Notes under the pieces: generated by a model
What the model was told of the DNA's origin: nothing
Databases searched by the model: none
Seen by the model: the letters and a program-made list of their open reading frames with translations, nothing else
Origin: a virus
Virus record (IMG/VR): IMGVR_UViG_3300032132_000001
Location: 42,573-106,572 of that record
Length of the DNA stretch: 64,000 nucleotides
Direction: 5' to 3' (one strand)
Program-made: the position numbers and the translations under genes
In this document: positions 1,309-37,178 of the stretch, piece by piece
Numbering within the stretch: position 1 is the first letter of the stretch
How the letters are laid out: each line of letters opens with the position of its first letter

Positions 1309-1683
1309 CTAGTAGAGTTGTAGGTCGCCGCAAATTGGGTCGATGTTGTCAGGATAATCGGGCCCGATTGAGCAGCATGTGTTAGTTGGTACCCCGCCAA
1401 ACTCGGTGAGCCCTCTATCGGTGATGAGCCAGGCAGACAGCCCTGCTTCTTTCGCAGCTTCGTAGACGGCTAAGAGGTCTTCTTCACTGCTGACCTTGCA
1501 GACGATCTTTTTGAAAGAGTTGTTGATCCAATCAACTTCTGCAGGTCTTAGATCTCTTCCACCGTCTTCACCTTTGAAAGCAGCGGACAGGAAAGCTATC
1601 GAGGCGTGGGAGCCTTGAGCGATCTCTTTCCCGCGCCTCATCTTGAGGTCTTTCCGGATGACGATTATCTGTTTAGGAACCAT
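1309..1683 (-). CDS. peptidyl-tRNA hydrolase, PTH2 family
   Basis: IVIRKDLKMRRGKEIAQGSHASIAF and C-terminal GGVPTNT... pattern typical of archaeal/eukaryotic-type Pth2. Confidence 0.65.
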   Translation of the reverse strand: MVPKQIIVIRKDLKMRRGKEIAQGSHASIAFLSAAFKGEDGGRDLRPAEVDWINNSFKKIVCKVSSEEDLLAVYEAAKEAGLSAWLITDRGLTEFGGVPTNTCCSIGPDYPDNIDPICGDLQLY

Positions 1684-1731
1684 GCCTTACCTATCCACGC
1701 CTCAACTCACCGTGCCTAGCAGTGCCACTGC

Positions 1732-2094
1732 TTATTGGCAATCGCAGGATGGCGGTGATCCAATGCACCCACACTTCTTGCACTGGTCAGGGCCGGGTCC
1801 CACCTTTTCTGCTGTTATAGTGAATTTGTATTCCCCTAGGTCGTCGATGCCCAGGGCTCTCATTATATCATTTGGATAGAGGACTGATCTAGAGATGTGG
1901 TCGATGTCCTCTACTTCGATCCCCATCGTCCTGCGATAGAAATCATCCTCCCGGAGCATCTCCTTCTCCATTTCCATGTCTTTGTCGTACTTCTCACCCA
2001 TCACAGCACGCATGTCTTCCTCTGGAATACCAGCCCAGATGAAGCACTCCATGTCACCACTGCAATAACCACGGAAAGAGATTGGATTACTCAT
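1732..2094 (-). CDS. hypothetical protein
   Basis: track ORF trimmed to ATG 2092-2094 so it abuts rather than overlaps tRNA-Asp. Confidence 0.4.
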   Translation of the reverse strand: MSNPISFRGYCSGDMECFIWAGIPEEDMRAVMGEKYDKDMEMEKEMLREDDFYRRTMGIEVEDIDHISRSVLYPNDIMRALGIDDLGEYKFTITAEKVGPGPDQCKKCGCIGSPPSCDCQ

Positions 2095-2171
2095 TGGCGA
2101 GGATGACCGGACTCGAACCGGCAACCTCCGGCTCGACAGGCCGGCGCACTAACCAATTGTGCTACATCCCC
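2095..2171 (-). tRNA. tRNA-Asp (anticodon GTC), CCA encoded
   Basis: hand-folded cloverleaf: acceptor GGGGATG/CATCCTC, anticodon stem CCGGC/GCCGG, loop CTGTCGA. Confidence 0.85.
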
Positions 2172-2195
2172 ACATGTGCCCCTTAGGCACGCTTT

Positions 2196-2561
2196 TTAGC
2201 TTTGCTTAGATACGCCCGATTTGAATTCCCCCCAGGCGATGACGGCCATGATTTCCGCTAGAGGTTTATCTTGGTGGAATCTTTTCATCCAACTTGTGGA
2301 AAAAGCCCCTTCCCTGAACCTCTGTGCAATCTCTCTTAGCCTATCATTGCTGATTGGATCAGCAATCTTCTTCAGGTCAGATGATACCAGAGATTTCGCG
2401 AACAACACAGCTAAATCTCGCTCACCCTCGTTGATCAGCGACCAGATAAGGTCAATCAGCTCAGTCGCTTTTGGCTCAACCGGCTTCGGGTTAGCTTTTG
2501 CAAGCTCTAGCAGTTCCCTTACCTTCTCTCGTCTAGTATTGCCCGTTAGAATAATCATCAT
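2196..2561 (-). CDS. hypothetical protein
   Basis: track ORF, start moved to MMIILTGN ATG at 2559-2561. Confidence 0.4.
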   Translation of the reverse strand: MMIILTGNTRREKVRELLELAKANPKPVEPKATELIDLIWSLINEGERDLAVLFAKSLVSSDLKKIADPISNDRLREIAQRFREGAFSTSWMKRFHQDKPLAEIMAVIAWGEFKSGVSKQS

Positions 2562-2640
2562 GGATACTCTGTTTGATGGAACTATAGCCGTACCAGGCAA
2601 AGCCAATGATGCCCGCTGCGATCAGAAGTCCATTAATCAT
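2533..2640 (-). CDS. possible 35-aa single-pass membrane peptide (MINGLLIAAGIIGFAWYGY...)
   Basis: short ORF with hydrophobic helix between two genes; below track size cutoff. Confidence 0.25.
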   Translation of the reverse strand: MINGLLIAAGIIGFAWYGYSSIKQSIHDDYSNGQY

Positions 2641-4126: not shown

Positions 4127-4131
4127 CCCCC

Positions 4132-4208
4132 TGGTACGCCCGGCAGGATTCGAACCTGCAACCTACGCCTTAGGAGGGCGTCGCTCTATCCAGTTGAGCT
4201 ACGAGCGC
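4132..4208 (-). tRNA. tRNA-Arg (anticodon CCT), CCA encoded
   Basis: cloverleaf GCGCTCGTAGCTCAACTGGATAGAGC...; anticodon stem ACGCC/GGCGT, loop CTCCTAA. Confidence 0.85.
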
Positions 4209-4209
4209 T

Positions 4210-5846: not shown

Positions 5847-6402
5847 GGTGACTTAGGTCGTGATCTGGTCCGAGCATAATCTTCATGCCTCGGATATCGA
5901 GCTTGTCTTTCCTAGATTCTATCTTTCTCCTCTTGGGTTCGAAACTGTCCAACACCTTTTGCGCATTGGACTTCAAACCAGTAAAAGTGGTGACCACTTT
6001 CTGGAAGAACTCAGGATCAGCGATGTGGATATCATCTACCTTGAAGAGCTGTGTCTCTCTTCCATCTCCTAGCCTAGCCTGCAGGTAGATCTCTACGTTG
6101 TCCCAGTGCGTCGGGACCGAGACAGCAGTAAAAACCTGTTGCAAACCATTGCCATAGAGGTTAAGCTCCACGGCGACACAATAGCTGGAAGCCACGCTCA
6201 TTTGGAACGCGTTTACTCTGATGGAGAAATCACTCCCTTCGTGGAAGCTTCGTTCCCAGATGTTCCATCCAGTGCAAACACGATTCTTTTCTACCACTTC
6301 GGCGGCTTCAAGATAGTCTAGGATCTCCTCTAGGATGGTACAACCCATCCTGATCGCTTCAGGGCAATCAGAACCATCTAGATCGTAATATTCTCGCTGC
6401 AT
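5836..6402 (-). CDS. hypothetical protein
   Basis: track ORF. Confidence 0.5.
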   Translation of the reverse strand: MQREYYDLDGSDCPEAIRMGCTILEEILDYLEAAEVVEKNRVCTGWNIWERSFHEGSDFSIRVNAFQMSVASSYCVAVELNLYGNGLQQVFTAVSVPTHWDNVEIYLQARLGDGRETQLFKVDDIHIADPEFFQKVVTTFTGLKSNAQKVLDSFEPKRRKIESRKDKLDIRGMKIMLGPDHDLSHHER

Positions 6403-7199
6403 GTCACTGGCTCCGCACCTCTGAAGATGACCTCTATCTTGTTGGTCACCTTATCGAAGGGTGGCATATCGATGATCTCGTACTCGGTGCGAGCAACAGA
6501 AAGACCAGGATTGTTATGAGCTTCGTGCTTTGGCGGGAGCCTGTCGATCTCGTTGGCAGAGAAGGGTCGCTCTATGACCCTCTTCTGAACCCATGTCCCG
6601 CGCTTGAAGAACGCTGGGTAGTCGTTCCAGTTGATGCCCGCAGCGTGGAGCATCTCCTGCATCTCAGTTCCGTTCTTCTTGAAGAGCTGCTTGTGTGAGT
6701 ACTCCTCTCTTGCAGCCATAGCCACCGAGTTCTTGGTGGCATCCCTCTCCCGCCACAGAAGATAGTTCGCGGCCTCAACGAGGTTTGGAACGACCCAGAC
6801 GCGGCAATCGAAGAAAGCGAGACGACCAGCACGCTCTGTGATGAACTCAGGTACCATCTCGTTGAAGTGGGCTGTCGCCATAGAAGAGAGGATCGAAACC
6901 ATCTTCTGGACTTTGCCATCCATGAAGATCTGGCTCTTGTAGCTGTCACTGTGCCAGACGAGTGAGATCTCATCAGACTGTGTGTACCCCACACAAGCTC
7001 CAGTCTCCTTCACCAAACGAAGGGTTACCCCTTGCATGATGTGAGTCAACCTCTCATCGTACGGGCGCTCCAGTCCACGTGTCCAAGAGCTGAACGTCTT
7101 ACCGTCGATACGGGCGCAGACCGGAAGGAGGGGCAGGAACTTCCCAGTCCCTGCCCGCTCGTATTCCTTCATCCGGTCCCCGAGATTATCGCTGCTCAT
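6378..7199 (-). CDS. Thg1-like 3'-5' nucleotidyltransferase (tRNA-His guanylyltransferase superfamily)
   Basis: RIDGKTF..KP.DERL...YTQSDEISLV...FDCRVWVVP...YLLWRERDATKN parallels Thg1 motifs (RxDG..F, YGQSDExS, FDxRV, YLxWRQxDxxxNN). Confidence 0.75.
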   Translation of the reverse strand: MSSDNLGDRMKEYERAGTGKFLPLLPVCARIDGKTFSSWTRGLERPYDERLTHIMQGVTLRLVKETGACVGYTQSDEISLVWHSDSYKSQIFMDGKVQKMVSILSSMATAHFNEMVPEFITERAGRLAFFDCRVWVVPNLVEAANYLLWRERDATKNSVAMAAREEYSHKQLFKKNGTEMQEMLHAAGINWNDYPAFFKRGTWVQKRVIERPFSANEIDRLPPKHEAHNNPGLSVARTEYEIIDMPPFDKVTNKIEVIFRGAEPVTCSENITI

Positions 7200-7524
7200 T
7201 CTCTTCTACCCACTTGAGGAAAGATGCTTTCATTGCAGGTTTGTTGTTTGTGTACTGGACGCATAGGCGGAACAAAGAGATGTTAGACACCATAGATGTT
7301 CCAAGCATATCTGTTTCCCTGATTTTCTTCAGCAAAAGCTGAAGCTCTGGCCTATATACGGCGATGCCTTCATCTACTTTCTTTTGGTAAGCATCGGTGA
7401 AATTTTCGCCGTCATAGTATTCACTGTCTACTGGTTGCCCTTCAGGGAAGATTGGCCTGAAGATTGTATTGATCGCATCCTCCTCGGCCTTATTCGGCAT
7501 TGGAAGGGGGAACTTGATCTCCAT
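7186..7524 (-). CDS. hypothetical protein
   Basis: track ORF. Confidence 0.4.
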   Translation of the reverse strand: MEIKFPLPMPNKAEEDAINTIFRPIFPEGQPVDSEYYDGENFTDAYQKKVDEGIAVYRPELQLLLKKIRETDMLGTSMVSNISLFRLCVQYTNNKPAMKASFLKWVEENEQR

Positions 7525-8200
7525 CTTTTTCCTTTTTCTCTGGGAGTTTCCACTCTAGGCCAGGGATCTCGAAGATGATGTCTTCGGGGCGACCACGCAT
7601 CATTTCATCCAGACAGACGTGAACAGTGCGGTGACCCTTCACCTGGAACTCTTTCTTCTGGTGATAGTGACCGAAGATCCAATACTCAGGCTTCCACCCC
7701 TCCCACTCCCACATCTGCTGGAACACAGCTTCGTTGCAGGAAACATAGTCGATCTTCAGCGCTGAGTTGGCAACCCAGGGCTTAGCGTCACTGTGGATTT
7801 CATGGGTGACCACAATACGAGGCTTGACCTCTTGGTACAAAGCCAAAGCAGCCATAGCTTGGGCGTAGGTCAGCTCTTCATCCGGCCACCAGTCCCGACC
7901 AATGGTCCGGTGCATGTGGTCGATAGAGTATCCGCCACCAGCGTAGAAGATCCCGGTGTGCTCATCGTACCCAAAATCACCAAGATAGTGGGACGCCCGC
8001 TTGCAGACCGAAGGATTGTCATGGTTGCCCCGGATGAAGCGATGCATCTTAGGATCGCGCTTTCCGAGCTTGTGCAGATTCCCACCCCGGAATAGCCCAA
8101 AGTCACCAACCTGGAGACTGTGCTTTCCTTCTTCGGTCAGTCGCTTTGTCAGCTTCCGCCATTGATTGTACTTGCCGTGCACATCACCGATGAAGATCAT
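7490..8200 (-). CDS. calcineurin-like metallophosphoesterase (PPP/ApaH-like fold)
   Basis: N-terminal IFIGDVHGK, later GNHD and GHYH metal-binding motifs. Confidence 0.7.
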   Translation of the reverse strand: MIFIGDVHGKYNQWRKLTKRLTEEGKHSLQVGDFGLFRGGNLHKLGKRDPKMHRFIRGNHDNPSVCKRASHYLGDFGYDEHTGIFYAGGGYSIDHMHRTIGRDWWPDEELTYAQAMAALALYQEVKPRIVVTHEIHSDAKPWVANSALKIDYVSCNEAVFQQMWEWEGWKPEYWIFGHYHQKKEFQVKGHRTVHVCLDEMMRGRPEDIIFEIPGLEWKLPEKKEKDGDQVPPSNAE

Positions 8201-8904
8201 TTTCCATATACCCTTCGAACGAAGTCCTCCACGAACGGTCCGATCTTATCGCTGTTGCGGTGGACTTCAAACTCGTCTAGCTTGATCGTATTTTTCTGGA
8301 TTGTAGTTTCCAGATCTGTGGAAATCTCATGCTGCCCTTGGACAACAGCTGTTTCTAAGAATTCGATTTTCACTGTGTCCCTGATCGTAGACTTGGAATC
8401 AAGATAGGCTTGCCCCATAGTCCCAGGATGAGAATACCAGATCAGAGGCATAGTCATGACCGAGATCTTCTCATCTTCGATCTGATTGACAGGAGTCATA
8501 GTCTGGAGACCCATGGCGAGCTTGAACCTCTCAATAGTCTTCTCTGCCTTTGGGAAAAGAAGACATACCAGCTGGCCTAGATGCTCATAGAGGTGGAATT
8601 CGAACCACTCGGCTGGCTTGTTTTCAGACCAGTACCGAATGTGATCTACAATCGGACCGGCATGTGAATGCACGATAACCGGATTTGAGGTGTTAGTTGC
8701 CTCATCTAGCATCCAGATGAGCGCATCACATTGTGTCAGCATCTCGTGCTTGTCTAGATCTGCTTTCTGTAGCTCCTCCTCTGAGAGAAGGTGGCCAGAT
8801 TCCCCCACTAGAAGCGGGACATAGGAGATGCAGACGTATTTTCCCTCAGGCATCGAACACTTCCTGAAATGGGCCGATGAACTGCTTATCATCGGAGGTG
8901 TCAA
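8197..8904 (-). CDS. hypothetical protein (possible hydrolase)
   Basis: track ORF; VIVHSHAGPIV segment. Confidence 0.4.
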   Translation of the reverse strand: MTPPMISSSSAHFRKCSMPEGKYVCISYVPLLVGESGHLLSEEELQKADLDKHEMLTQCDALIWMLDEATNTSNPVIVHSHAGPIVDHIRYWSENKPAEWFEFHLYEHLGQLVCLLFPKAEKTIERFKLAMGLQTMTPVNQIEDEKISVMTMPLIWYSHPGTMGQAYLDSKSTIRDTVKIEFLETAVVQGQHEISTDLETTIQKNTIKLDEFEVHRNSDKIGPFVEDFVRRVYGK

Positions 8905-9679
8905 GGATTGCGAAGATCACGTCGTGGAATGCACCATCGAACTCGCCGGTAAGGAACTCGTGGAACCATTGGGCTACATCGGCCCCGTTGTTTCCAAAGA
9001 CGCCGCACCCCCATGCACCAAGAACTAGCTGGTCCTGGCCCTTATGGACCGCAAGGGTAAGCATCTTTCGCATTCGCTCTTGCATGACCGGATCGGCTTG
9101 GTCCAGCAAGCTTTCATCCAGCGACCCCTTGTTCACCGCTGGGGTCGTCAGATAGTTGAAGTTCCTTGGGGCGATCAATTGGTCATAATCGTTCCTGAAT
9201 GTTGGAACTTCAGGAGAGAAGATCATATGATCGCTGTACAGTCTGCTCTCTGTACGATTGAAGTCGTACATCTCTTTGTGAACAGTTAGTGTGGGGTAGA
9301 GCGCAGAACCGCGCGCCAGACACTCTTCCTGCGCTTGCGCGCCACGGATGAACCCACCACCTGGATGCGTACCAGATGCGAAGTTCAAAATCATGATCTC
9401 TGCATCTTCGCCATGTCTTTCAGATAGGCGATAGGCAGCAGAGAAAGAAGATTCGTTCACCACTTGGAATTGTGTGTCGTAAGGCATCGGCTGGTCACCC
9501 AACATGCCACGCAAGTCCACTAATGTCTCAGGTCCAAGGAGCTGAGACGAATCGGTGGCCCACTCTATCGCATCTTGGATGTCATGTACCTCACCATTCA
9601 TATCCTTGTATTTTCCTTGGATGATGATGGTGAGAGTCTCTTGAGCGATTTTGGCCAACTTTCTACGTTGTTTTGTCAT
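8846..9679 (-). CDS. bacterial-type poly(ADP-ribose) glycohydrolase (PARG/DUF2263 macrodomain)
   Basis: LNFASGTHPGGGFIRGAQAQEE carries the GGG-X7-QEE PARG signature. Confidence 0.75.
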   Translation of the reverse strand: MTKQRRKLAKIAQETLTIIIQGKYKDMNGEVHDIQDAIEWATDSSQLLGPETLVDLRGMLGDQPMPYDTQFQVVNESSFSAAYRLSERHGEDAEIMILNFASGTHPGGGFIRGAQAQEECLARGSALYPTLTVHKEMYDFNRTESRLYSDHMIFSPEVPTFRNDYDQLIAPRNFNYLTTPAVNKGSLDESLLDQADPVMQERMRKMLTLAVHKGQDQLVLGAWGCGVFGNNGADVAQWFHEFLTGEFDGAFHDVIFAILDTSDDKQFIGPFQEVFDA

Positions 9680-9693: not shown

Positions 9694-9767
9694 TGAGAGC
9701 GCTGGGATTCGAACCCAGGACCTACAGATTAAAAGTCTGTTGCTCTAACCAGCTGAGCTACGCTCCC
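9694..9767 (-). tRNA. tRNA-Lys (anticodon TTT)
   Basis: cloverleaf GGGAGCGTAGCTCAGCTGGTTAGAGCAACAGACTTTTAATCTGT...; loop CTTTTAA. Confidence 0.85.
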
Positions 9768-11919: not shown

Positions 11920-12004
11920 TGGTGCCCGAGGAGGGACTCGAACCCTCATCCCCGAAGGGACAGGTTTTTGAAACCTGCGTGTATACCAATTCCACCACTC
12001 GGGC
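11920..12004 (-). tRNA. tRNA-Leu (anticodon CAA), long variable arm, CCA encoded
   Basis: GCCCGAGTGGTGGAATTGGTA...; loop TTCAAAA. Confidence 0.85.
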
Positions 12005-12011
12005 CCATATC

Positions 12012-12296
12012 TTAGATACCTTCGACTGAGGATTTGTACGTTTCAATCTCAGCTTGGCGGAAGTACGCTTCAACTTCACCTGGATCGTTCTTGGTATAGT
12101 CGGGGATCCAGACCCATTTTTCACCGTTGCACTTATTGCAGACCGCTTCTTTCGTCTTCCCTACGATCTTGCCTTCACCTTCGCAAACGGCACAGATATA
12201 TTTAGTGGTGACAAGGGAGATTTTCTTTTTCTTTACCGGCTTGGTTGTCCATTTGCCGTCCTTGTCCAGCCACATGTCGAACTCTACTGTTCTCAT
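12012..12296 (-). CDS. small Cys-rich hypothetical protein
   Basis: track ORF; CAVCEGEGK...CNKCNGEK. Confidence 0.4.
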   Translation of the reverse strand: MRTVEFDMWLDKDGKWTTKPVKKKKISLVTTKYICAVCEGEGKIVGKTKEAVCNKCNGEKWVWIPDYTKNDPGEVEAYFRQAEIETYKSSVEGI

Positions 12297-12386
12297 ATGG
12301 TTCCCGTTTATGAGCCCGAAGGCTAAATTAAGTACCTTACCTTTCCCTGCCCCGCCATGCTATGCCTAACCGTGCAACGCCACAAG

Positions 12387-12473
12387 TGGTGCGGGAAGGG
12401 GGACTTGAACCCCCAAGGCCCTAAGGCCACATGGCCCTCAACCATGCGCGTCTACCAATTCCGCCATTCCCGC
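12387..12473 (-). tRNA. tRNA-Leu (anticodon GAG), CCA encoded
   Basis: GCGGGAATGGCGGAATTGGTAGACGCGCATGGTTGAGGGCCATG...; loop TTGAGGG. Confidence 0.85.
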
Positions 12474-12560
12474 TTCAACATGCCACGGCTCAGATCCTCA
12501 CCTCACCTTGCCGTTCCGAGCCGGGCCCTACCTAACCGAACCGCAACTTACCATACCACA

Positions 12561-12645
12561 TGGTGCGCCGGGGGGGACTCGAACCCCCACGCCCGAAGGC
12601 ACTGGGTCCTAAACCCAGCGCGTCTACCAATTCCGCCACCAGCGC
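12561..12645 (-). tRNA. tRNA-Leu (anticodon TAG), CCA encoded
   Basis: GCGCTGGTGGCGGAATTGGTAGACGCGCTGGGTTTAGGACCCAG...; loop TTTAGGA. Confidence 0.85.
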
Positions 12646-12651
12646 TTATTC

Positions 12652-12984
12652 TTACAACTTTGGAGATTTGCCTTTAGCAAGTCTGTCAGGAAATTCAACC
12701 GCTTTACCATAGATTGAGTTCAGCCCAACCCAGCCGTTGATGTGACCCTTGTTGTTTGCAATCTGGTATCGCTCACCATCGATTGCCTTGACCAGGTGGA
12801 GGTACACCCGACCTTTCACCTTAACCAAGACGATATCGCCGCATTCGGGTCCACCAGAGGTGAAGGGGGAGAGGATCACTTTCTCTCCGCTCTTCACTTT
12901 CGGCTTCATCGAGTGGCCCTTTGGTTGGATCGTCGCTTTCTCTCCGCTCTGGAGTTTTTGGATTGCTCGGTCTGCCCAGTTCAT
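12652..12984 (-). CDS. S24/S26-family (LexA/UmuD-like) serine peptidase domain protein
   Basis: PKGHSMKPKVKSGEKVILSP...GDIVLVKV matches the GxSMxP...GD(I/L)V catalytic-core pattern. Confidence 0.55.
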   Translation of the reverse strand: MNWADRAIQKLQSGEKATIQPKGHSMKPKVKSGEKVILSPFTSGGPECGDIVLVKVKGRVYLHLVKAIDGERYQIANNKGHINGWVGLNSIYGKAVEFPDRLAKGKSPKL

Positions 12985-13080
12985 AGCCTTGTATCGTTTT
13001 GATGACCATTATGGTTTCCTTGCCGCACCTGTCCATGCCGAGCTACAACTAACCCCACCGGGCCGGACCGTACCATATGG

Positions 13081-13154
13081 TGGTCCCTGCTGGACTTGAA
13101 CCAGCGACCTCCACGATGTCAACGTGGCGCTCTAGCCAACTGAGCTAAGGGACC
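13081..13154 (-). tRNA. tRNA-Val (anticodon GAC)
   Basis: GGTCCCTTAGCTCAGTTGGCTAGAGCGCCACGTTGACATCGTGG...; loop TTGACAT. Confidence 0.85.
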
Positions 13155-13225
13155 AACAACCTTGCCTTTCCGTACCATTCCCATCCATGCCTCACCGCAC
13201 CTAGACGAGCCGTACCAAGCCAAAA

Positions 13226-13302
<77 letters not shown>

Positions 13303-13630: not shown

Positions 13631-14179
13631 TTATCGTGTCTCTCCAAACGGAGATTGCATAGGACCCCTCTCCTCGGCAAGCTCAAGGATGGGAGTCCCA
13701 TTCATCACTTGTTTCAACATGCGGTCGTACAACACCATATAGACCGCAGCGCCCAGGTTCGCACAGTGGCGAATCGGGATCTTTACGAACCGATGGCAGT
13801 GCCTCATCATCGTGGATGAAATGCTGCCATCTTCTGGGCCAAACACGTACACCGGATTCTCTGGGTGTTCAAAGTCCGTGAGCAACTCAGAGTTATCCCT
13901 CAACTCGATTGCCACCGGGGTAGACCCCTGAGGGAATTGGTCGAAGGGGAAGTCGAACTGGATCATCTCCACGTCCTTGTATCCCTTCATCCTTTCTTCT
14001 CGTGGGAGCCGCTTCTTCCCGTCCAGCCGTACACGGTTGCCCGTCCACCAGAGTTGACTCAAGCCGAAGCAAGAACATGCCCTCAACGCAGCCCCGACGT
14101 TGTGGTCGTATTTTGGGTTGGTCAGGATGATAGCCGGGGTCTTTCCCACCGGCTTCATGTTCTTGCCGACTTGTTTCAT
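13631..14179 (-). CDS. SpoU/TrmH-family RNA 2'-O-methyltransferase (SPOUT)
   Basis: ILTNPKYDHNVGAALRACSCFG and YVFGPEDGSIS motifs of the TrmH family. Confidence 0.7.
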   Translation of the reverse strand: MKQVGKNMKPVGKTPAIILTNPKYDHNVGAALRACSCFGLSQLWWTGNRVRLDGKKRLPREERMKGYKDVEMIQFDFPFDQFPQGSTPVAIELRDNSELLTDFEHPENPVYVFGPEDGSISSTMMRHCHRFVKIPIRHCANLGAAVYMVLYDRMLKQVMNGTPILELAEERGPMQSPFGETR

Positions 14180-14188: not shown

Positions 14189-14839
14189 CTATGCTGCGTT
14201 TGGGTGCTTGAACGGTTTCTCTACCAGTAGATCAACAAATTCCTTGATCTGCCTGGCAACCTTGCCTCTTGGTGCGATGCTGAAGCGTTCGAACGCTTCC
14301 TCCTTGATCCACTTGCGCAGATCGGAGGCGAACTCATCCGAGCGAGCTTTCCAGTCACATACCATTTCGGCTATATAAACCCTCGGCATCTGGTCGACGC
14401 CGCCCCAGTATTCTGGGTGGTGAGCATTGGTCTTGACGTGCTGACGATGAGCCAGCTTTAGCTGGTCACTTGTTGCATTCTCGTGCAAGCATTCCCACTC
14501 AATGCCATAGAACTTGGAGTTATCGTGGATGAGGGAGTTGGCAATCAGGATCCGTCCAAGGTCCGTTTCTCCTCTCTCAATCAGCGCCATGCCCAACTTG
14601 TGTGCGCCATCTTGCACGAGCTTGATATGGCGCACCACAGCGTTTAGGTATCGAAGCTCTTCTTTGAGAAGGTCGTCGGTCCTTCGTTCAGGCAAGGCTA
14701 CTTTCTTTTTCGCCGTTGCCTTCTTCTTAGACCCCTTCTCAGCTTTACTCTCTTCATCTGACACAGGATGTACTCCTAGGAAGACCTGGCTATCAGGAGC
14801 CAATTGACTATCTACGTGCTTCTTGTGGCTCACCGACAA
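14189..14839 (-). CDS. hypothetical protein (possible HD-like metal site)
   Basis: track ORF; SLIHDNSKF...HRQHVKTNAHHPEYW. Confidence 0.4.
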   Translation of the reverse strand: MSVSHKKHVDSQLAPDSQVFLGVHPVSDEESKAEKGSKKKATAKKKVALPERRTDDLLKEELRYLNAVVRHIKLVQDGAHKLGMALIERGETDLGRILIANSLIHDNSKFYGIEWECLHENATSDQLKLAHRQHVKTNAHHPEYWGGVDQMPRVYIAEMVCDWKARSDEFASDLRKWIKEEAFERFSIAPRGKVARQIKEFVDLLVEKPFKHPNAA

Positions 14840-16894: not shown

Positions 16895-16970
16895 TGGCTC
16901 CCCGAGCAGGACTTGAACCTGCGACATCCTGATTAACAGTCAGGCGCTCTACCAACTGAGCTATCGAGGA
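16895..16970 (-). tRNA. tRNA-Asn (anticodon GTT), CCA encoded
   Basis: TCCTCGATAGCTCAGTTGGTAGAGCGCCTGACTGTTAATCAGG...; loop CTGTTAA. Confidence 0.85.
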
Positions 16971-23596: not shown

Positions 23597-23815
23597 TTAT
23601 TTCTTCCGATATGTGATGCGACCCTTAGTCAAGTCATACGGTGATAGCTCAACCGTTACCTGATCACCAGGGAGCACCTTGATGTAGTTCTTGCGCATCT
23701 TGCCTGAGAGGTGGCACATAACCACATTGCCGCCCTCCAACATGACACGGAACCGCGTGTTAGGTAACGCCTCGGTCACCTCGCCTTCTACGACAATCGG
23801 TTCTTCTTTAGCCAC
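23597..23815 (-). CDS. infA: translation initiation factor IF-1
   Basis: 72 aa near full-length match to bacterial IF1 ([23 protein letters not shown]...[34 protein letters not shown]). Confidence 0.9.
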
Positions 23816-23820: not shown

Positions 23821-24399
23821 TTAGTCCTTGATGGTATACTTCTTGTAGAGTTCAACATCGTTCAGCTGACTGTGAATCTCTTCGGCCCAGAGGTGAGATG
23901 CCCCACTGCCATCCTCCCCGACACCAGGCTCGTTCTTGGAGGTCCAGACCGCGAAGTTCCAATACGGCGGGAACTTCTCATTGTTGTATCGTTGCACCAT
24001 CCCACGGAACTGCTGCCATGGGACACCGTGCTTCTGTCGGCGGTACGCCGTCATCGGATCGACCGGGATCTCAATGATTTCGTGGCCGTACCCGAAAGAG
24101 TTGGCGACCGAGATGTACGGTGCAAGCTCGATAGCACCGAGGTTCGTGTTATCCACGATCACGAACTTGAACTGGTTGCCAAGCGCTTCGATATACTTGC
24201 TCATGCATCGAGCGTGCGCTTGAGGCAGCTTGCCTCGCTTGAAGTCGTACTTCAAGCTTCCGTCTTCCTCTTCGCTGTAGAAGAAGTGGTCGGCTGACAC
24301 CACGACCACACTCCCTTTGCTTCTCTTCTCGATGATCAACTTCTTCACCAAGGTGGACTTCCCTCCACCTGGTACGCTCCTCGGCAGAATAACGTGCAT
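23821..24399 (-). CDS. P-loop kinase, polynucleotide 5'-kinase-like (AAA_33/T4 Pnk kinase-domain-like)
   Basis: Walker A PGGGKST, downstream VVSADHF and VIVDNTNL. Confidence 0.55.
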
Positions 24400-27399: not shown

Positions 27400-27656
27400 T
27401 AGTCTTTCTGATGATCTTCCGGATCTTGTTTGCCGTGGTAGATGAAGTAAGCTGTCATACCCGCAACGACCAGAGCCATAACGATCCCAATGACCATTGT
27501 GAAACCGGCTGCTTCTTGGTAGTACTTCACATCATCGAAATGGGAACATCCAGCAGCCCCTGCCCAGATGAACATCACCACGACGATTGAAGCTTTGATC
27601 AGGGTGCGGATCACTTCAAACTGTTGAGAGTGAGTCACCTTTTCAGAATAGCTCAT
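27399..27656 (-). CDS. small membrane protein (2 TM)
   Basis: track ORF. Confidence 0.45.
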   Translation of the reverse strand: MSYSEKVTHSQQFEVIRTLIKASIVVVMFIWAGAAGCSHFDDVKYYQEAAGFTMVIGIVMALVVAGMTAYFIYHGKQDPEDHQKD

Positions 27657-29020
27657 TTCAACTCCTTCTTAGCCCATTCCATGGCCGATTCTTGGTCAGC
27701 GAAGGCTCCGTCCATCTGAGCTTCGTACGCTTTCTTCAGAAATACGCCAAGCTCTTTACTAGGCTCCATCAGCCCAGCCTCGATCAGATCACGGCCGTTG
27801 AGGATTCGCTTCGCGCCTTCATTGAGCACGCGCTTCTCACTTGCGATCTCAAGCATCCGAAGGCAGTTCTCCGACTTCCCACGAGGAAGAGGGGGGCGAC
27901 CAGAGTGGTCAGCTTCACACAGCCGTGCAAGCTCTACGATGCTCGCCGGCTCCAAACGCTTGGCAAGACGACGGACAGCTCTCGACGTAGCCGCTTGGTT
28001 GTGCGCCATGTGGTTCCCGACCATGGGCAGGATCTTATCCTTGTACTTCTTGTGACACCCAATTGAGTCCAGGAACTCTTCTGCGATAGGCACACCACCA
28101 CGCTCATGACCACGTGATCTCCACCTGCCATCTTCGAACTTGGTGTACTTTGCCTTGCCGACGTCATGGCACAGAGCGGACAGCACCAACATGCCACGAT
28201 CTTCCACATCAAGCTCGTCACGGATGGCGATTTCTGCTGCGGCATCGACCACGAACTTGGTATGAGTCCAAGCGCAGCCTTCAGGATGCCACTCGGGATC
28301 CTGAGTCACTCCGATCAGAGCGGTGAGCTGCGGGTAGAGATCGAGCCAGCAGGTGTCCTCCAGGAAGACCAGGCCAGAGCTTGGTTTGATGGACTTTGTT
28401 GCCCATTTCCACCACTCTTCCCACACTCGCTCAACAGGAAGGTCTTTGTACTCATCCTTCAGCGTGTTGCAGAGATGCGACGTGTCTGCCCAGACCGCCA
28501 TGTCAAATCGCCCTGTGAACTGCATCCCTCGCAGCACACGAAGAGGATCTTCGGCGAAAGCTGGAGATGTGTGGCGGAGGAGACCGTACTCGATATCCTT
28601 CAGCCCTTTGAAGAAGTCCAGTGTCTCGCCGGTCAGTGGATCGAAGGCTAGGGCATTCATGGTGAAGTCCCTGCGAGACGCCGCTTCCTCCGGTGTCATC
28701 GTCGGGTCGGGGTCCACCATGAAGCCCTTATGCCCACGCCCTCGCTTGCTCTCTCGTCGGGGAAGAGAGACATCGAACTCAACGCCACCTTCCTTGTACT
28801 TGAGTACGCCGAAGCTCTTGCCTACCGCATCGACCTTGCCCTTAGATTCCAGGAGTTCTTGGAGCTTATCGGGGCTCATGCCGTAGACTTCGACGTCGAT
28901 GTCCTTCCAGTCCTTGTTTCCCATCTGGGAATCTCGGACGGCACCGCCCACAACCAGGACACGGGCAGCGCCGTTCTCGGTCAGGTACCGAGCTAGTTCC
29001 TTGATCTTTTTCATGTCCAT
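27653..29020 (-). CDS. cca: tRNA nucleotidyltransferase (CCA-adding enzyme), class II head domain plus HD domain
   Basis: VVGGAVRD...DIDVEV head motifs, RRDFTMNA, HD..GK; start moved to MDMKK (ATG 29018-29020) after GAGGTG. Confidence 0.8.
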   Translation of the reverse strand: MDMKKIKELARYLTENGAARVLVVGGAVRDSQMGNKDWKDIDVEVYGMSPDKLQELLESKGKVDAVGKSFGVLKYKEGGVEFDVSLPRRESKRGRGHKGFMVDPDPTMTPEEAASRRDFTMNALAFDPLTGETLDFFKGLKDIEYGLLRHTSPAFAEDPLRVLRGMQFTGRFDMAVWADTSHLCNTLKDEYKDLPVERVWEEWWKWATKSIKPSSGLVFLEDTCWLDLYPQLTALIGVTQDPEWHPEGCAWTHTKFVVDAAAEIAIRDELDVEDRGMLVLSALCHDVGKAKYTKFEDGRWRSRGHERGGVPIAEEFLDSIGCHKKYKDKILPMVGNHMAHNQAATSRAVRRLAKRLEPASIVELARLCEADHSGRPPLPRGKSENCLRMLEIASEKRVLNEGAKRILNGRDLIEAGLMEPSKELGVFLKKAYEAQMDGAFADQESAMEWAKKELK

Positions 29021-29028
29021 GTTCACCT

Positions 29029-29343
29029 CTACGACAGGAAGTCTTTGAAAGCTCTTTGCCACTGGTCCAGATCCAAGAGCTTCAGTTGGTCTTTGGGGAA
29101 CGATTTGATGCACAGATCAGGTTCGTCCAACCCGTTATGCTGGTACTTGCCTTCCTTGAAGATCAAACCAGTCACTGGCAGATCGTCTTCGATCTCCAGA
29201 TCCCACAAGTACAACTCGATGACGGTGTCTCTTGTGGCAGTCATCTCGATGGCGGAGCGAGCTTGCTCTGGAGTGATCTCCTGCATTTCTTCGAAAGGAA
29301 GCTCTTCTCCACCGCACCAAAAGTATGCAATATGCTTAGTCAT
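29029..29343 (-). CDS. hypothetical protein
   Basis: track ORF trimmed to MTKHIAYFW (ATG 29341-29343). Confidence 0.4.
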   Translation of the reverse strand: MTKHIAYFWCGGEELPFEEMQEITPEQARSAIEMTATRDTVIELYLWDLEIEDDLPVTGLIFKEGKYQHNGLDEPDLCIKSFPKDQLKLLDLDQWQRAFKDFLS

Positions 29344-30227: not shown

Positions 30228-30485
30228 CTAGCCCTTGGACTTCTTGCCCTTCTTTCCCTTCTTGCCCTTCTTCTTCGGCTTGGGCTCATCGCCCTCTTCC
30301 TCAGAAGTCTCCTCCTTGGGAGCCGTCTTCTTCTTGATGGCCTCAGCGTATCGCTTTCGGCCAGTGCCTTTGCACCAGTTCAAGAACCAAGGACTAGGAA
30401 GCCCAGGGCCTCCCTCCACCGTCTTGATTGCATCATCTGGGTGCATCTCACCAGAGCGCACCAACTCTCTAAGACCCTTTGCCAT
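30228..30485 (-). CDS. hypothetical protein with poly-Lys C-terminal tail
   Basis: track ORF. Confidence 0.4.
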   Translation of the reverse strand: MAKGLRELVRSGEMHPDDAIKTVEGGPGLPSPWFLNWCKGTGRKRYAEAIKKKTAPKEETSEEEGDEPKPKKKGKKGKKGKKSKG

Positions 30486-30855
30486 CCTCGCCTCCCCATA
30501 GGAGATTCTCTACAATGTCGCCGAAATCGTTTCTCATGATGTCACAATCAACGATGGGCACACCATATTCTTCCAGTAACGCCTTCTGCTTGCCCCGCCC
30601 AGACGGGTTGTTGGAACACAGCAAAACTGGAATACTTAGCTCGACCAGGAATTTCTCAGCCACCAACATGCCACTCATCAGCGGCATATCGTGATCAAGA
30701 ATGATCAGGTCCCAAGGGTACGGCACCCTACGGAGGTAGAAGTCACACTGCTCGTCGCCATGGGCGAAAACCAGCGTCAAGTATCTCCGCTCCAGAAGGT
30801 GCCGTATCTTGGTGAACCGGATCGGCTGGTCGTCGATCCAGAGCACATGTTTCAT
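30469..30855 (-). CDS. stand-alone CheY-like receiver (REC) domain protein
   Basis: VLWIDDQ..., phospho-acceptor-like ILDHDMPLMSG, LLCS, conserved Lys region. Confidence 0.6.
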   Translation of the reverse strand: MKHVLWIDDQPIRFTKIRHLLERRYLTLVFAHGDEQCDFYLRRVPYPWDLIILDHDMPLMSGMLVAEKFLVELSIPVLLCSNNPSGRGKQKALLEEYGVPIVDCDIMRNDFGDIVENLLWGGEDGKGS

Positions 30856-33367: not shown

Positions 33368-33378
33368 GCCACACCTCG

Positions 33379-34797: not shown

Positions 34798-34970
34798 CAG
34801 CTCATCTCGATCTGAGCAACGATGGCATACGAAAGCTTATTGCGCTCCATCGCATAATCTTCGGCATATTTGTCGAGGATTTGGGAGGGAGCGCGCACGC
34901 CTGGTTTATATTCCAGGGCCACGCATGGATCTCCTTCCCAACAGATGATAAACATCTTCTTATCGCTCAT
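34797..34970 (-). CDS. possible small protein MSDKKMFIICWEGDPCVALEYKPG...
   Basis: 57-codon ORF read by hand filling an apparent gap. Confidence 0.3.
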   Translation of the reverse strand: MSDKKMFIICWEGDPCVALEYKPGVRAPSQILDKYAEDYAMERNKLSYAIVAQIEMS

Positions 34971-35266
34971 TACCAGACATCCTCGCTAAACAGACCAACA
35001 TGTGCGTTCATTTGGTCTTCTTTCTTCACTTGGCCGGCAAGGCGAGCCAGCCGTGCAGCTGGCTTTCTGCGGACGAAGTCGCCGGATTCGGTCAGGAACC
35101 CCTGTTCCCTGTTGATCGGGGGTTTAATCCCTTTCTCCGTCACCATCATGTGAACGATGTCGGCGTGACGAGCAGGAGCAGGAAGGGAATACACCACGCC
35201 ATCCTTCCACAGGATCGCTGCGGCGACGATCTTACCGTAGTCTTTTCTCATTGGCCCTCCCAACAT
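34970..35266 (-). CDS. hypothetical protein; ATG is the ATG of the 14-mer motif (MLGGPM...)
   Basis: track ORF. Confidence 0.45.
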   Translation of the reverse strand: MLGGPMRKDYGKIVAAAILWKDGVVYSLPAPARHADIVHMMVTEKGIKPPINREQGFLTESGDFVRRKPAARLARLAGQVKKEDQMNAHVGLFSEDVW

Positions 35267-35272
35267 GACACG

Positions 35273-35827
35273 CTATCCTTTCATGATGACGTGTTCGATG
35301 AGCCCGCCGACGAGACCGGCTCTCTCCCGCTCTTCCTTCTTGGCCGCTCGGGTCAGTTCAGCAATGTTGTGCCGAACCGCATCCCAGTGGTCGTAGACTT
35401 TCATGATCTCAGCCTGGTCAGGGTGAGTGAACGTCAACTGGGTGTTAGTACCGTAGCAGGCCCCTCTATTGACCTCAACCTTATCGGCTTCCGCTTGGAT
35501 CTCAGGCGCCACGTGTGGGCCCCAATCTTCGCAATAGCAACGCATGGCAAGCTCGTGTGAAGGGCCCATGATCCTGGCGCAGCGCTTCAGCTCCCAGATC
35601 GCGTACCCTTCCATCAGCCTGAGGAAATCGAGAGCCTTGGAGGGGTCCGGATGGGCGACTTGGAGGAACTGATGGAGCGGCCCACGGCTGAACCAACCCA
35701 TCTGTATCCTCAGCCCCTCTTCTTTTCCCTCGTTGGCAACGAACATGTCCGTCTCGTTGCCACTGCCGAAGTCTCCCTCAACTTCGTGCCAGTTGCCGTT
35801 GTTGTCGCTGTAGGAGTAAAAGATCAT
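35273..35827 (-). CDS. hypothetical protein
   Basis: track ORF. Confidence 0.45.
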   Translation of the reverse strand: MIFYSYSDNNGNWHEVEGDFGSGNETDMFVANEGKEEGLRIQMGWFSRGPLHQFLQVAHPDPSKALDFLRLMEGYAIWELKRCARIMGPSHELAMRCYCEDWGPHVAPEIQAEADKVEVNRGACYGTNTQLTFTHPDQAEIMKVYDHWDAVRHNIAELTRAAKKEERERAGLVGGLIEHVIMKG

Positions 35828-36021
35828 TCCATCCTCATCAGCATGCTGTAGATGTCCTCTACCGACAGCTTCTTCAGTTCCTTTCGCTTCTCACCAGGGA
35901 AGTGTGCCTTCCCCGGCTCACTCAGGATCATGGCTATCGCCTTCTGACGGAACGCCGTGAGGCATTCCTGTCGGTACAGCTCCACGGCTTCGTTTAGTTG
36001 ATCTGCGAGCCAGACGTCCAT
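35824..36021 (-). CDS. hypothetical protein
   Basis: track ORF. Confidence 0.4.
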   Translation of the reverse strand: MDVWLADQLNEAVELYRQECLTAFRQKAIAMILSEPGKAHFPGEKRKELKKLSVEDIYSMLMRME

Positions 36022-37178
36022 TAAGCATCTTCTCCTTCGTCGTGGAACGCGATGCCGCCGGTCGGCTTCAACATCTTCCAGATCTGCTCCTCGATCATCC
36101 GTCCGTCCAGCAAGCTGAACATGAGATGAGGATGGGTGCAGTTTTCCTTGATGTAGAGCGCTTGATCCTTCCGAGTGTCGGTCGGACCCTGAGGGACCTT
36201 CTTGATCTCGTTGGACGCCGCGAACCGGATCCGGTGAGCCGCCTCGTACAAGCCCATCGCCGTCTCAGTGAGCCAGTGATGGAACTCGTCCGGAACATCG
36301 ACGCCCAGGAGGATGTCCTCCTTGACCGTACCACCAGTCTTGAGGACTTCCCAGATCCGGCGAGGGGTCAGACCACAGAGGAGCTTGTGGCGGATCTTGT
36401 ACCACTCGAACTTGATCTTGATCCGCTGACCCGACGAGAACTTGAGGACGAAGCCCTCTCGGTTCTCTTCGTCCATCGCGTCGAGCTGAGCCGGGGTGAG
36501 GTGTTCGAGATCGTACCGCTTGCAGATCTCGAATAGCTGCTCGTTCTCCTGGTCTAGCCCAGTTGTACCATGCTGGATGCTCGTTTCACCCCAGGTGACG
36601 AATGTCGCCAGCTGCTCATAGGGGACTTCTGAACCGGACTCGGTGTGAATCACGGTCAGGAGGGTGAGCTTAGTGTTCGGACCGTAGTCAACCACGATCT
36701 GAGGCCGACCACCTTCCTTGGCGTAGATCACCTCGAAAAGGTAGGTGTAGTCGTGATGGAAAACGTCTTGAGGAAGAGCGTGGGCCGGGCAACAAACCCG
36801 GAGCAATTCTTCCCGACCGATCACCGATTGGTCCGAAGTGAAGCTACCTCGGGTCGCCGTCACCAGCTCACCCTTGTAGACGCAGGCGATGAACAGCGAA
36901 CCGTCCATCTTCTCCATCACCTCGAAGGTCTCGTTGGGTGCTTCCACCTCACCGAGGTTGAAGAACTTGCCGAAAGGACGTCCAACGATCTCCTTCGGCT
37001 TCCCGGTCTTCTCGGGGTCGGTCGTGATGAGACCGCGACACGTCTTGGTCGCCGCGTTCCACACCCGATCGAACTGCGTCTTTGGCGTGTAGTTGTGAAT
37101 GAGGAGAGGGAGGGTCGGATGGACCTGGGTCTTGATAAACCCTTCCTCTATCATCTTGTCAATCAGTTCCCAGTCCAT
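36021..37178 (-). CDS. ATP-dependent RNA ligase, T4 Rnl1 (gp63) family
   Basis: CRGLIT..GRPFGKFFNLGE...MEKMDGSL...EGFVLK...KIKFEWY align with Rnl1 CRGIMF..RPMEKFFNL..KEDGSL..EGYVAV..KIKSDWY; start MDWELIDK at 37176-37178 after GGAG. Confidence 0.8.
   Translation of the reverse strand: MDWELIDKMIEEGFIKTQVHPTLPLLIHNYTPKTQFDRVWNAATKTCRGLITTDPEKTGKPKEIVGRPFGKFFNLGEVEAPNETFEVMEKMDGSLFIACVYKGELVTATRGSFTSDQSVIGREELLRVCCPAHALPQDVFHHDYTYLFEVIYAKEGGRPQIVVDYGPNTKLTLLTVIHTESGSEVPYEQLATFVTWGETSIQHGTTGLDQENEQLFEICKRYDLEHLTPAQLDAMDEENREGFVLKFSSGQRIKIKFEWYKIRHKLLCGLTPRRIWEVLKTGGTVKEDILLGVDVPDEFHHWLTETAMGLYEAAHRIRFAASNEIKKVPQGPTDTRKDQALYIKENCTHPHLMFSLLDGRMIEEQIWKMLKPTGGIAFHDEGEDA

Follow-up and report, generated by a model that had tools for sequence, protein, structure and literature searches.

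A dispersed set of predicted tRNA repair and translation maintenance genes in a 64-kb window of a probable huge phage

The window, meaning here the whole stretch of 64,000 nucleotides that was analysed (positions 42,573 to 106,572 of the IMG/VR virus record IMGVR_UViG_3300032132_000001), carries a dispersed set of genes for predicted tRNA repair and translation enzymes together with ten tRNA genes. A preliminary description of this DNA had named seven of the enzymes between positions 1309 and 37178, these being a T4 Rnl1-family RNA ligase, a polynucleotide kinase (PNK)-like P-loop kinase, a calcineurin-like phosphoesterase, a Thg1-like polymerase, a CCA-adding enzyme, a PTH2 peptidyl-tRNA hydrolase and a TrmH/SpoU methyltransferase, and had suggested that they form a layered counter-measure against tRNA-targeting host defences. 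The 137 open reading frames (ORFs) of the window were scanned with Pfam at its gathering thresholds and with NCBIfam and PHROG, family profiles were compared with the PDB, and AF2 models were searched with Foldseek. All seven enzymes were recovered where they had been placed, all on the minus strand; they passed the Pfam gathering thresholds and their family assignments hold. A protein resembling small alarmone hydrolases (SAHs), a PARG, IF-1, a peptide deformylase, a receiver-like protein, a DUF5662 protein, a second metallophosphoesterase and a tRNA with a CUA anticodon were absent from the earlier list.

Enzymes and tRNA genes of the window

The RNA ligase gene (36021..37277, minus strand) encodes 418 aa from a TTG codon and 385 aa from the ATG at 37178, the start given previously, which is internal (Met34). 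The protein scored 73.3 bits against RNA_lig_T4_1 (PF09511, cut-off 28.3) and covers phrog_562, annotated as 'RNA ligase and tail fiber protein attachment catalyst', over almost its full length (E 1e-52). T4 Rnl1 (2C5U) was matched at E 7e-10, with KMDGS, EGFV and IKIK aligned to KEDGS, EGYV and FKIK (motifs I, IV and V). The Pfam score and these motifs identify the ligase as Rnl1-type, as had been proposed, and as neither a DNA ligase nor a capping enzyme. Against the T4 RnlA equivalog model TIGR02308 it reached 61.4 bits, the cut-off being 242.25; judged by these scores it is a member of the Rnl1 family and not a T4 RnlA equivalog.

The kinase (23821..24399, minus strand, 192 aa) is a stand-alone P-loop protein of the polynucleotide/tRNA-kinase clade, with a single AAA_33 domain (41.3 bits) and a C-terminal 40 aa disordered in the model, and it matches phrog_2071, annotated 'ATPase' (E 1e-19). 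In an alignment of its family with 29 homologues the segments GxGK(S/T), SADHFF, VDNTN and RNxHGVP are invariant, and so is Asp37, which aligns with the first Asp of the N-R-D-D-Y-R segment of T4 Pnk, presumably the general base Asp35. The significant solved relatives of the family profile were tRNA or polynucleotide kinases only, namely PSTK (3e-10), T4 Pnk (3e-8), mammalian PNKP (3e-7), the Clostridium thermocellum Pnkp kinase (3e-7) and Pnkp1 (9e-5), and the AF2 model (pLDDT 85) retrieved PSTK, Mucorales Trl1-type kinases, T4 Pnk, PNKP and CthPnk among its top 30 Foldseek matches. Profile, fold and an operon context with Rnl1 elsewhere thus all place it in the PNK/PSTK clade and not in an unrelated P-loop family, in agreement with the earlier label. 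Single-sequence PDB matches to designed beta-propellers were rejected as spurious repeat matches to residues 28-61. As an annotation lead, proteins listed as 'ATPase' under phrog_2071 are PNK-clade kinases whose genes accompany those of Rnl1 and Thg1-like proteins. At 19988-20815 on the minus strand lies a gene for a membrane metalloprotease of the Peptidase_M50 type (site-2-protease-like); an M50 homologue directly follows the kinase homologue in two kinase-family loci (L133, L136), and another is present in the huge phage LR756511.1.

Two metallophosphoesterases are encoded, here called MPE1 and MPE2. The calcineurin-like phosphoesterase named before is MPE1 (7490..8200, minus strand, 236 aa; Metallophos 40 bits; phrog_1649), which is one of a family with over 1,400 members and carries the motifs GDVHG, GD, GNHD and GHYH. 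Its profile found Dbr1, the RNA lariat debranching enzymes, as sole matches in the PDB (E 1e-7), and the best ten Foldseek matches of its AF2 model (pLDDT 93.6) were all Dbr1 (E 2.5e-9, TMq ~0.6), followed by the cyclic-nucleotide phosphodiesterase Rv0805, with PP1 and lambda-type phosphatases low in the ranking. MPE2 (54539..55216, plus strand, 225 aa; phrog_547, E 1.6e-38) lies outside 1309-37178 and has the motifs DxH, GD, GNHD and GHSH conserved; its profile resembles Aquifex aq_1665 (1XM7, E 1e-20), with lambda phosphatase (1G5B) at E 0.95. Neither protein is closest to lambda phosphatase or to CthPnkp phosphatase domains. The family assigned earlier to the phosphoesterase at 7490-8200 stands, but its choice as the heal-and-seal enzyme does not, since it is Dbr1-like and it is homologues of MPE2, not of MPE1, that sit in ligase-kinase operons elsewhere; for the latter reason MPE2 is the better candidate for the 3′-end-healing enzyme. 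The phosphoesterases of phrog_547 are accordingly a second annotation lead, as the likely end-healing partner of the kinase. A relation of MPE1 to the T5 anti-retron factor Rad was considered and dropped, Rad being a TOPRIM-type protein.

The Thg1-like protein (TLP; 6378..7199, minus strand, 273 aa) is a predicted 3′-5′ nucleotidyltransferase of the bacterial type, with 95.5 bits to Thg1 (PF04446) and E 1e-85 to phrog_4717. It matches the Bacillus thuringiensis TLP 4KGK at E 7e-42 over residues 4-211, whereas its matches to true Thg1 enzymes range from E 1e-12 to 6e-4. The catalytic carboxylates of RIDG and SDE are conserved relative to 4KGK, and opposite the Thg1 motif HINNLYN of 5XOX the protein has DATKNS with a gap. 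Palm domain and carboxylates confirm the earlier placement within the Thg1 superfamily, and these matches assign the protein to the bacterial-type TLPs and not to Thg1 sensu stricto, the tRNA-His G-1 guanylyltransferase. One small ORF separates it from MPE1. Upstream of both lies a microbial-type PARG, a macrodomain-fold ADP-ribose glycohydrolase (8846..9679, minus strand, 277 aa), with 140.6 bits to PARG_cat_microb, 243.8 bits to TIGR02452 and the GGG-x8-QEE signature. PARG, ORF235, MPE1, ORF112, TLP and five more small ORFs form one overlapping co-directional string at 4210-9679 on the minus strand, bounded by tRNA-Lys (9694) and tRNA-Arg (4208), and this string is probably a single transcription unit.

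The CCA-adding enzyme (27653..29113, minus strand) is of class II with a C-terminal HD domain, the architecture of E. coli Cca, and has 486 aa from a GTG codon and 455 from Met32, the internal ATG at 29020 that had been taken for its start. Pfam recognised a PolyA_pol head (72.7 bits) and HD (28.9 bits), and the best NCBIfam model was PRK10885, 'multifunctional CCA addition/repair protein', at 186 bits against an equivalog cut-off of 451. The motifs GGAVRD56-61, DID71-73, RRDFTMNA147-154, EDPLR188-192 and HD316 are present. Just downstream of this region, at 26149-26874 on the minus strand, lies a gene for a DUF3228 protein (33 bits), homologues of which (41% identical) co-occur with CCA enzyme and kinase homologues in loci L095-L100 and L117. 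The PTH2 peptidyl-tRNA hydrolase of archaeal/eukaryotic type (1309..1683, minus strand, 124 aa) reached 98 bits with PF01981 and 92.3 bits with TIGR00283, over the cut-off of 82, and its best phage matches were the huge phages LR756511.1 (53%) and LR745208.1.

The methyltransferase gene (13631..14179, minus strand, 182 aa) encodes a SpoU-class SPOUT RNA 2′-O-methyltransferase (SpoU_methylase PF00588, 56.2 bits) with the three SpoU motifs, invariant as N27-x5-R33, FGPEDGG and IP...NLAAAV, the catalytic Arg among them. The profile of the family matched TrmJ at 7e-6, TrmL at 5e-4 and TrmH at 7e-3 in the PDB, and the protein scored 15-37 bits with the NCBIfam models for TrmH, TrmL and TrmJ, whose cut-offs are 160-212. 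By PF00588 and motifs the SpoU class proposed earlier is retained, but TrmH specifically is not, as no TrmH, TrmL or TrmJ equivalog cut-off was reached; the protein represents a distinct phage subfamily. The family holds about 2,200 proteins, many of them 60-74% identical, an unusual conservation for a phage accessory gene, and it was present in 3 of 50,697 deposited phage records, with the sole close copy in LR756511.1; the two members whose context was examined both lay on huge-phage-like contigs. Immediately upstream and abutting it is a gene for a DUF5662 protein (14189..14839, minus strand, 216 aa; 80.3 bits), which has a homologue 49% identical in LR756511.1 and another near the kinase-TLP-MPE2 cluster of locus L148. 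In loci L157 and L158 (JGI contigs of 125 and 384 kb) an AAA_33 kinase follows about 300 nt after the SpoU homologue with an RlaP nucleotidyltransferase within 10 kb, an RNA-repair neighbourhood unlike that of the window.

A further phosphohydrolase of the HD_4 family (22815..23429, minus strand, 204 aa; HD_4 30.4 bits; phrog_990, E 5e-35) resembles SAHs. Among solved structures the (p)ppApp hydrolase 7SMG comes closest to it (E 3.5e-20); RelA/SpoT hydrolase domains and MESH1 rank next. It keeps the H...HD...ED motif, with LHDTVED conserved relative to 7SMG. SAH enzymes have been shown to strip tRNA CCA ends of the pyrophosphate added by toxSAS toxins (10.1101/2021.04.30.441581), and for this reason, by analogy, the SAH-like protein would be a more direct and better candidate than the CCA enzyme against toxSAS toxins of the CapRel/FaRel2 type. 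Its clustering with RNA ligase, kinase and phosphoesterase genes in other phages suggests a role as RNA 3′-end phosphatase. Directly downstream of the kinase lies the gene for translation initiation factor IF-1 (23597..23815, minus strand, 72 aa; eIF-1a E 8.5e-27), which exceeds the cut-off of 61 for TIGR00008 infA at 112.7 bits and is 61% identical in LR756511.1. A peptide deformylase (42494..42982, minus strand, 162 aa; Pep_deformylase E 3.4e-35) has the motifs GxGxAAxQ, EGCLS and HExDH and stays slightly under the TIGR00079 cut-off (101.8 bits against 103.95). A receiver-like domain protein (30469..30855, minus strand, 128 aa), also slightly under the cut-off with 27.9 bits to Response_reg (30.2), is a weak candidate for cRec, a cyclic-phosphate-processing domain linked to RNA ligases in the passages of PMC7824862 that deal with it.

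Ten tRNA genes were found in the window by each of ARAGORN and Rfam, nine of them within 1309-37178, so that the count of 11 given before has to be lowered; neither ARAGORN with introns and a relaxed threshold nor Rfam gave an eleventh over the whole window. All lie on the minus strand. Those called by both programs as tRNA-Asp(GUC) (2095..2171), tRNA-Arg(CCU) (4132..4208) and tRNA-Asn(GUU) (16895..16970) encode their CCA, as do all five members of an array at 11920..13302, which consists of tRNA-Leu(CAA) (11920-12004), tRNA-Leu(GAG) (12387-12473), tRNA-Leu(UAG) (12561-12645), tRNA-Val(GAC) (13078-13154) and tRNA-Val(UAC) (13226-13302), also identified by both. The tRNA-Lys(UUU) gene (9694..9767; ARAGORN and Rfam) is the sole one of the ten without encoded CCA; tRNA-Lys(UUU) is the species classically attacked by PARIS and by the anticodon nuclease PrrC. 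Because nine of the ten encode CCA, a repair role of the CCA enzyme is favoured over maturation, and of the earlier reading the label of 3′-end repair suits it better than the 'maturation' of its title. ARAGORN found no tRNA-His in the window. The remaining gene, at 39267..39342 and thus outside 1309-37178, has a CUA anticodon of the amber-suppressor type (labelled 'Pyl' by ARAGORN), and LR756511.1 likewise carries a tRNA-CUA. Stop-codon recoding within the window was considered and rejected, because no meaningful merging of ORFs results when TAG is read as sense, and about 30% of ORFs terminate with TAG; the standard code is used here, and the tRNA may be connected with a recoding of stop codons in late genes in other parts of the genome.

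Two small proteins are encoded on the minus strand inside the tRNA array, a protein of 94 aa that has a CxxCxGxG zinc-finger motif of the DnaJ type (12012-12296) and a 110-aa S24/S26-peptidase-like protein between the Leu and Val genes (12652-12984). Unrelated huge-phage contigs (L129, L136, L141) encode homologues of the latter with 53-58% identity, and in LR756511.1 the corresponding gene adjoins that of IF-1.

Gene neighbourhoods and relatives in other phages

Neighbourhoods were compared for 73 IMG/VR homologues of TLP, for 80 kinase-family loci and for 80 SpoU-family loci (L173-L252). In Vibrio phage F88 the kinase homologue, annotated 'ATPase', overlaps the end of the Rnl1 gene, and the gene ahead of Rnl1, annotated 'phosphoesterase', is a homologue of MPE2 and not of MPE1. 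Among the kinase loci, L121 has MPE2, SAH-like, kinase and Rnl1 genes in this order within 3.4 kb, L148 a kinase-TLP-MPE2 cluster and L108 a kinase-Rnl1 pair. TLP, MPE2 and kinase genes are tightly packed in the TLP loci L033 and L035, Rnl1 lies directly upstream of TLP in L053 and the kinase directly upstream of TLP in L011, and SAH-like, TLP, MPE1, NTase and Rnl1 genes occur within 20 kb in L042. MPE1 homologues were found within 10 kb of TLP in L010 (2.0 kb), L021 (8.2 kb), L040 (4.9 kb) and L042 (1.4 kb), PTH2 near TLP in L034 and L036, and the CCA enzyme within 10 kb in 11 of the 80 kinase loci, several of these being near-duplicates. The heal-and-seal idea of the preliminary description thereby gains independent support from gene context, in phage F88, in L108, L121 and L148, and in LR756511.1 as described below. 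Single-sequence searches for related loci with Rnl1 and PTH2 as queries gave none. By comparison of names, the TLP and kinase locus sets have at least one contig in common, 3300037067_027616 (L060 and L134), and no contig common to the SpoU set and these two was noticed by eye among the loci listed.

The closest relatives of TLP and PTH2 are in the metagenomic huge phages LR745206.1, LR745208.1 and LR756511.1, and all 595 kb of the last, a published huge phage, were screened with the 137 window proteins, the window itself being without core genes. Homologues were found for 13 of the 137. Besides PTH2 and IF-1 at the identities given above, these include TLP (44%), MPE1 (35%), MPE2 (38%), PARG (31%), SpoU (~66%), DUF5662 (likewise given above), peptide deformylase (29%), the S24-like protein (54%) and M50 (30%), and a kinase homologue (29%) lies directly beside an Rnl1 homologue (31%). 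Its tRNA genes number 63, including one with a CUA anticodon. The toolkit makes up nearly all the content common to the window and LR756511.1, and it is dispersed there too. As the set recurs, dispersed and nearly complete, in this published huge phage, and as it is a published theme of jumbo and huge phages, the combination can no longer be called unusual, as it had been.

Synteny with the window was almost absent from the 73 TLP loci. The density of tRNA genes was 30 per 100 kb at the SpoU loci (47 of 80 loci), compared with 11 at the TLP loci, 9 at the kinase loci and 10.6 over the whole of LR756511.1. As a further annotation lead, the conserved SPOUT family marks huge-phage tRNA arrays.

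Three window proteins have identical copies on a contig of 397,419 bp, and the window is for this reason assigned to a huge phage or to some other element of similar size. Megablast of 40 kb of the window against the 50,697 phage records matched tRNAs alone, and neither an exact 40-mer search of IMG/VR nor exact-protein contig look-ups with TLP and one other protein (P0001) gave a match. A minus-strand arm runs from position 1 to about 47.3 kb with a GC content of 0.50-0.61 and a plus-strand arm from about 47.5 to 64 kb with 0.46-0.49, both consisting of densely packed small ORFs with a coding density of about 85%. At the divergent strand switch (~47.2-47.6 kb) GC content falls from about 0.58-0.61 (38-46 kb) to about 0.47-0.49 (48-64 kb), and switch and drop together suggest two modules with different histories. 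On the plus-strand arm a 154-aa ORF (58173-58637) matches positions 283-323 of the T4 Gp23 capsid model with its first 43 residues (34 bits), its length being too small for a capsid protein.

Proposed pathway and alternatives

Most likely the window is a piece of the accessory and probably early region of a huge-phage genome of about 400 kb, carrying a dispersed tRNA and translation maintenance kit of a known type. The gene set is a non-chance grouping, the same families recurring together, often adjacent, in unrelated phages. All enzymatic steps of the mechanism proposed here derive from family membership and gene context. Ten phage tRNAs would replace depleted or cleaved host species. At a break, the PNK-clade kinase would phosphorylate the 5′-OH, a phosphoesterase would open the 2′,3′-cyclic phosphate and remove the 3′ phosphate, with MPE2 as the best candidate and the SAH-like HD protein, the HD domain of the CCA enzyme and MPE1 as possible alternatives, and Rnl1 would close the break. 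TLP could rebuild 5′ ends by templated 3′-5′ addition, for which a 5′-phosphate is required that the same kinase could provide, and the CCA enzyme could rebuild 3′ ends. PTH2 would free tRNAs trapped as peptidyl- or N-blocked aminoacyl-tRNA, and the SPOUT enzyme may protect or tune tRNA by 2′-O-methylation, most probably in the anticodon loop. IF-1 and peptide deformylase would lend general support to translation. Probably (p)ppApp or tRNA 3′-pyrophosphorylation is countered by the SAH-like protein as well, and ADP-ribosylation by PARG. Of the host defences named before as targets, PrrC/RloC, CapRel/FaRel2 and TacT/AtaT would all be plausible candidates.

Several observations weigh against so direct a pathway. 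The genes are spread over more than 50 kb and both strands, and neighbourhood frequencies are low, 3-11 of about 80 loci as raw counts. A T4-type bifunctional Pnkp with HAD phosphatase is absent from the 137 ORFs by Pfam scans. MPE1 resembles a 2′-5′ debranching enzyme and not a 3′-phosphatase, and the sole strong solved relative of MPE2 is the uncharacterised aq_1665. T4 Rnl1 has a role in tail-fibre attachment too. The similarity of the SpoU protein to TrmJ, TrmL and TrmH is weak. In the kinase, SADHFF has a Phe where the N-R-D-D-Y-R segment of T4 Pnk has its second Arg, the acceptor-binding Arg38, and the closest structural neighbour is PSTK, a kinase of tRNA-bound amino acids; for both reasons its acceptor could differ. 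The persuasive part of the neighbourhood evidence is the direct adjacency repeated in unrelated phages, the frequencies being modest.

Of the other explanations considered, a mixed anti-defence island rather than one pathway is possible, if on the unlikely side. Part of the set would then serve tRNA and several members would act on non-tRNA substrates, MPE1 on branched nucleic acids or on nucleotide signals that are cyclic or 2′-5′-linked, the SAH-like protein on (p)ppGpp or (p)ppApp and PARG in reversing ADP-ribosylation of protein, DNA or RNA, while Rnl1 would double as a tail-fibre attachment factor. The nearest folds of MPE1 (Dbr1 and Rv0805), the (p)ppApp hydrolase as best solved relative of the SAH-like protein and the mention of tail fiber attachment in the annotation of phrog_562 are all in keeping with this, as are the clustering of anti-defence genes in tRNA-rich regions of T5-like phages (10.1101/2023.03.15.532788) and the assignment, in passages of PMC7824862, of Macro-type and phosphoesterase domains to counter-nucleotide/NAD-centred conflicts. 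MPE1, the SAH-like protein and MPE2 recur, however, beside TLP, kinase and Rnl1, which points to some shared RNA-end chemistry, and such an island is largely compatible with the repair and maintenance kit preferred here.

It is unlikely that the set is a housekeeping kit for translation take-over rather than counter-defence, maintaining phage tRNAs and translation after host shut-off, with the CCA enzyme for tRNA-Lys, TLP for 5′ processing or G-1 addition, SpoU acting on phage tRNAs and PTH2, IF-1 and deformylase for throughput. In its favour, IF-1 and deformylase are encoded on the same arm, CCA is missing from the tRNA-Lys(UUU) gene, the SpoU family occurs within tRNA arrays, and in the view of Al-Shayeb et al. 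such genes serve mainly to redirect host translation (PMC7162821). Against it, CCA is already encoded by nine of the ten tRNAs, TLP is of the repair type and not a G-1-adding Thg1 and tRNA-His is absent from the window; RNA ligase, 5′-kinase and phosphoesterases are without a role in ordinary bacterial tRNA maturation, and their recurring operon linkage points to the repair of broken RNA. Mere co-location, huge phages amassing accessory genes with no functional coupling in the 55-kb stretch, is very improbable. Many unrelated ORFans do lie between the toolkit genes, synteny with relatives is almost nil, and most TLP, kinase and SpoU loci have no other toolkit gene within +/-10 kb. Against this, genes of the same families directly adjoin or overlap one another in several unrelated phages, and the toolkit is almost the sole content common to the window and LR756511.1 (13 of 137 proteins).

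That the SPOUT family and the PARG-MPE1-TLP string should together be two undescribed arms of tRNA defence is a more speculative proposal and appears quite doubtful. The SPOUT enzyme could pre-emptively 2′-O-methylate anticodon-loop positions of phage or host tRNAs, which would remove the 2′-OH nucleophile needed by metal-independent anticodon nucleases and so amount to protection, not repair. The string could deblock RNA ends, stripping 2′-linked or ADP-ribosyl adducts before 3′-5′ rebuilding.

For the preferred reading of a dispersed repair and maintenance kit, the wider meaning is that a fairly complete set of this kind is among the few things that very divergent huge phages have in common, in support of the view that tRNA attack is a major pressure on large phages. 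The phrog_2071 kinases, the phrog_547 phosphoesterases, the SAH-like HD hydrolase and the SPOUT family are leads as candidates for new anti-defence enzymes.

Comparison with known systems

Single members of the set have well-defined counterparts. Bacterial TLPs (4KGK) share with the window TLP the carboxylates and DA(S/T)KNS, and templated 3′-5′ repair of 5′-truncated tRNA would be expected of it by homology; it differs in being phage-encoded, in having some 60 extra aa at its C terminus and in its operon with a Dbr1-like phosphoesterase and PARG. SAHs (MESH1, ATfaRel, 7SMG) are, like the window protein, RelA/SpoT-type HD hydrolase domains alone, whereas the window protein is phage-encoded and has an N-terminal extension of about 60 aa with cysteines.

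The repair of tRNA-Lys by T4 Pnkp and Rnl1 against PrrC is matched in the Rnl1 motifs, a Pnk-like kinase and a phage tRNA-Lys(UUU). In contrast to T4, the window kinase is not fused to a HAD 3′-phosphatase, the healing phosphatase being presumably a separate MPE or HD enzyme, the ligase is far below the RnlA equivalog cut-off and the genes are not adjacent, so that this is not the T4 Pnkp-Rnl1 system in the strict sense. With C. thermocellum Pnkp and Pnkp-Hen1 the window shares a 5′-kinase, a metallophosphoesterase, an ATP-dependent ligase and a 2′-O-methyltransferase; in the bacterial systems the phosphoesterase heals 3′ ends and the methyltransferase shields the RNA once it is repaired. Its proteins are separate, however, and not one polypeptide, MPE1 and MPE2 are not lambda-phosphatase-like, and the methyltransferase is of the SPOUT class and not the Rossmann-fold Hen1, the link between methylation and repair being an analogy only. 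Mycobacterium phage WXIN (Omegavirus) encodes a TrmH-family methyltransferase, Pnkp and archaeal-type PTH2 within 7 kb (66.7-74.1 kb); its PTH2 is 53% identical to that of the window and its SpoU protein 29% only, its Pnkp is canonical and bifunctional, and no TLP or CCA enzyme is found in that region.

The closest counterpart is the repertoire of jumbo and huge phages. Section 3.4.9 of Iyer et al. 2021 (Viruses 13:63; PMC7824862) lists tRNAs, Rnl1, Rnl2 and RtcB ligases, polynucleotide kinases, RlaP and cRec, and also HAD, calcineurin-like and HD phosphoesterases, CCA-adding enzyme, Thg1 and PTH2, and describes them as the answer of jumbo phages to host effectors that target tRNA, a concept touched on in Al-Shayeb et al. 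2020 (Nature 578:425; PMC7162821). The window agrees with the repertoire in tRNAs, Rnl1, kinase, phosphoesterases, CCA enzyme, Thg1, PTH2, IF-1 and deformylase, possibly also in cRec, and the purpose proposed there, to answer tRNA-cleaving host effectors and sustain translation, is alike. The Pfam scans of the 137 ORFs found no RlaP, 2H, KptA, RtcB, Rnl2 or HAD, and PHROG and Pfam revealed no hidden RlaP, 2H, KptA or HAD partner in the ORFs flanking Rnl1, the CCA enzyme and TLP; the window thus differs in being without RlaP, which is typical of many such systems, and without 2H, RtcB, Rnl2, KptA and HAD-Pnkp. It has, on the other hand, SPOUT, SAH-like and microbial PARG proteins, which were not found among the RNA-repair components of that section. 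The window is a new and rather complete example of the published jumbo and huge-phage toolkit, and the overall concept is not new. Less well charted are the stand-alone kinase family, for which databases mostly say 'ATPase', the string of PARG, Dbr1-like phosphoesterase and TLP, phrog_547 as partner of the kinase, the SAH-like HD protein inside ligase-kinase operons and the conserved SPOUT family of huge-phage tRNA arrays.

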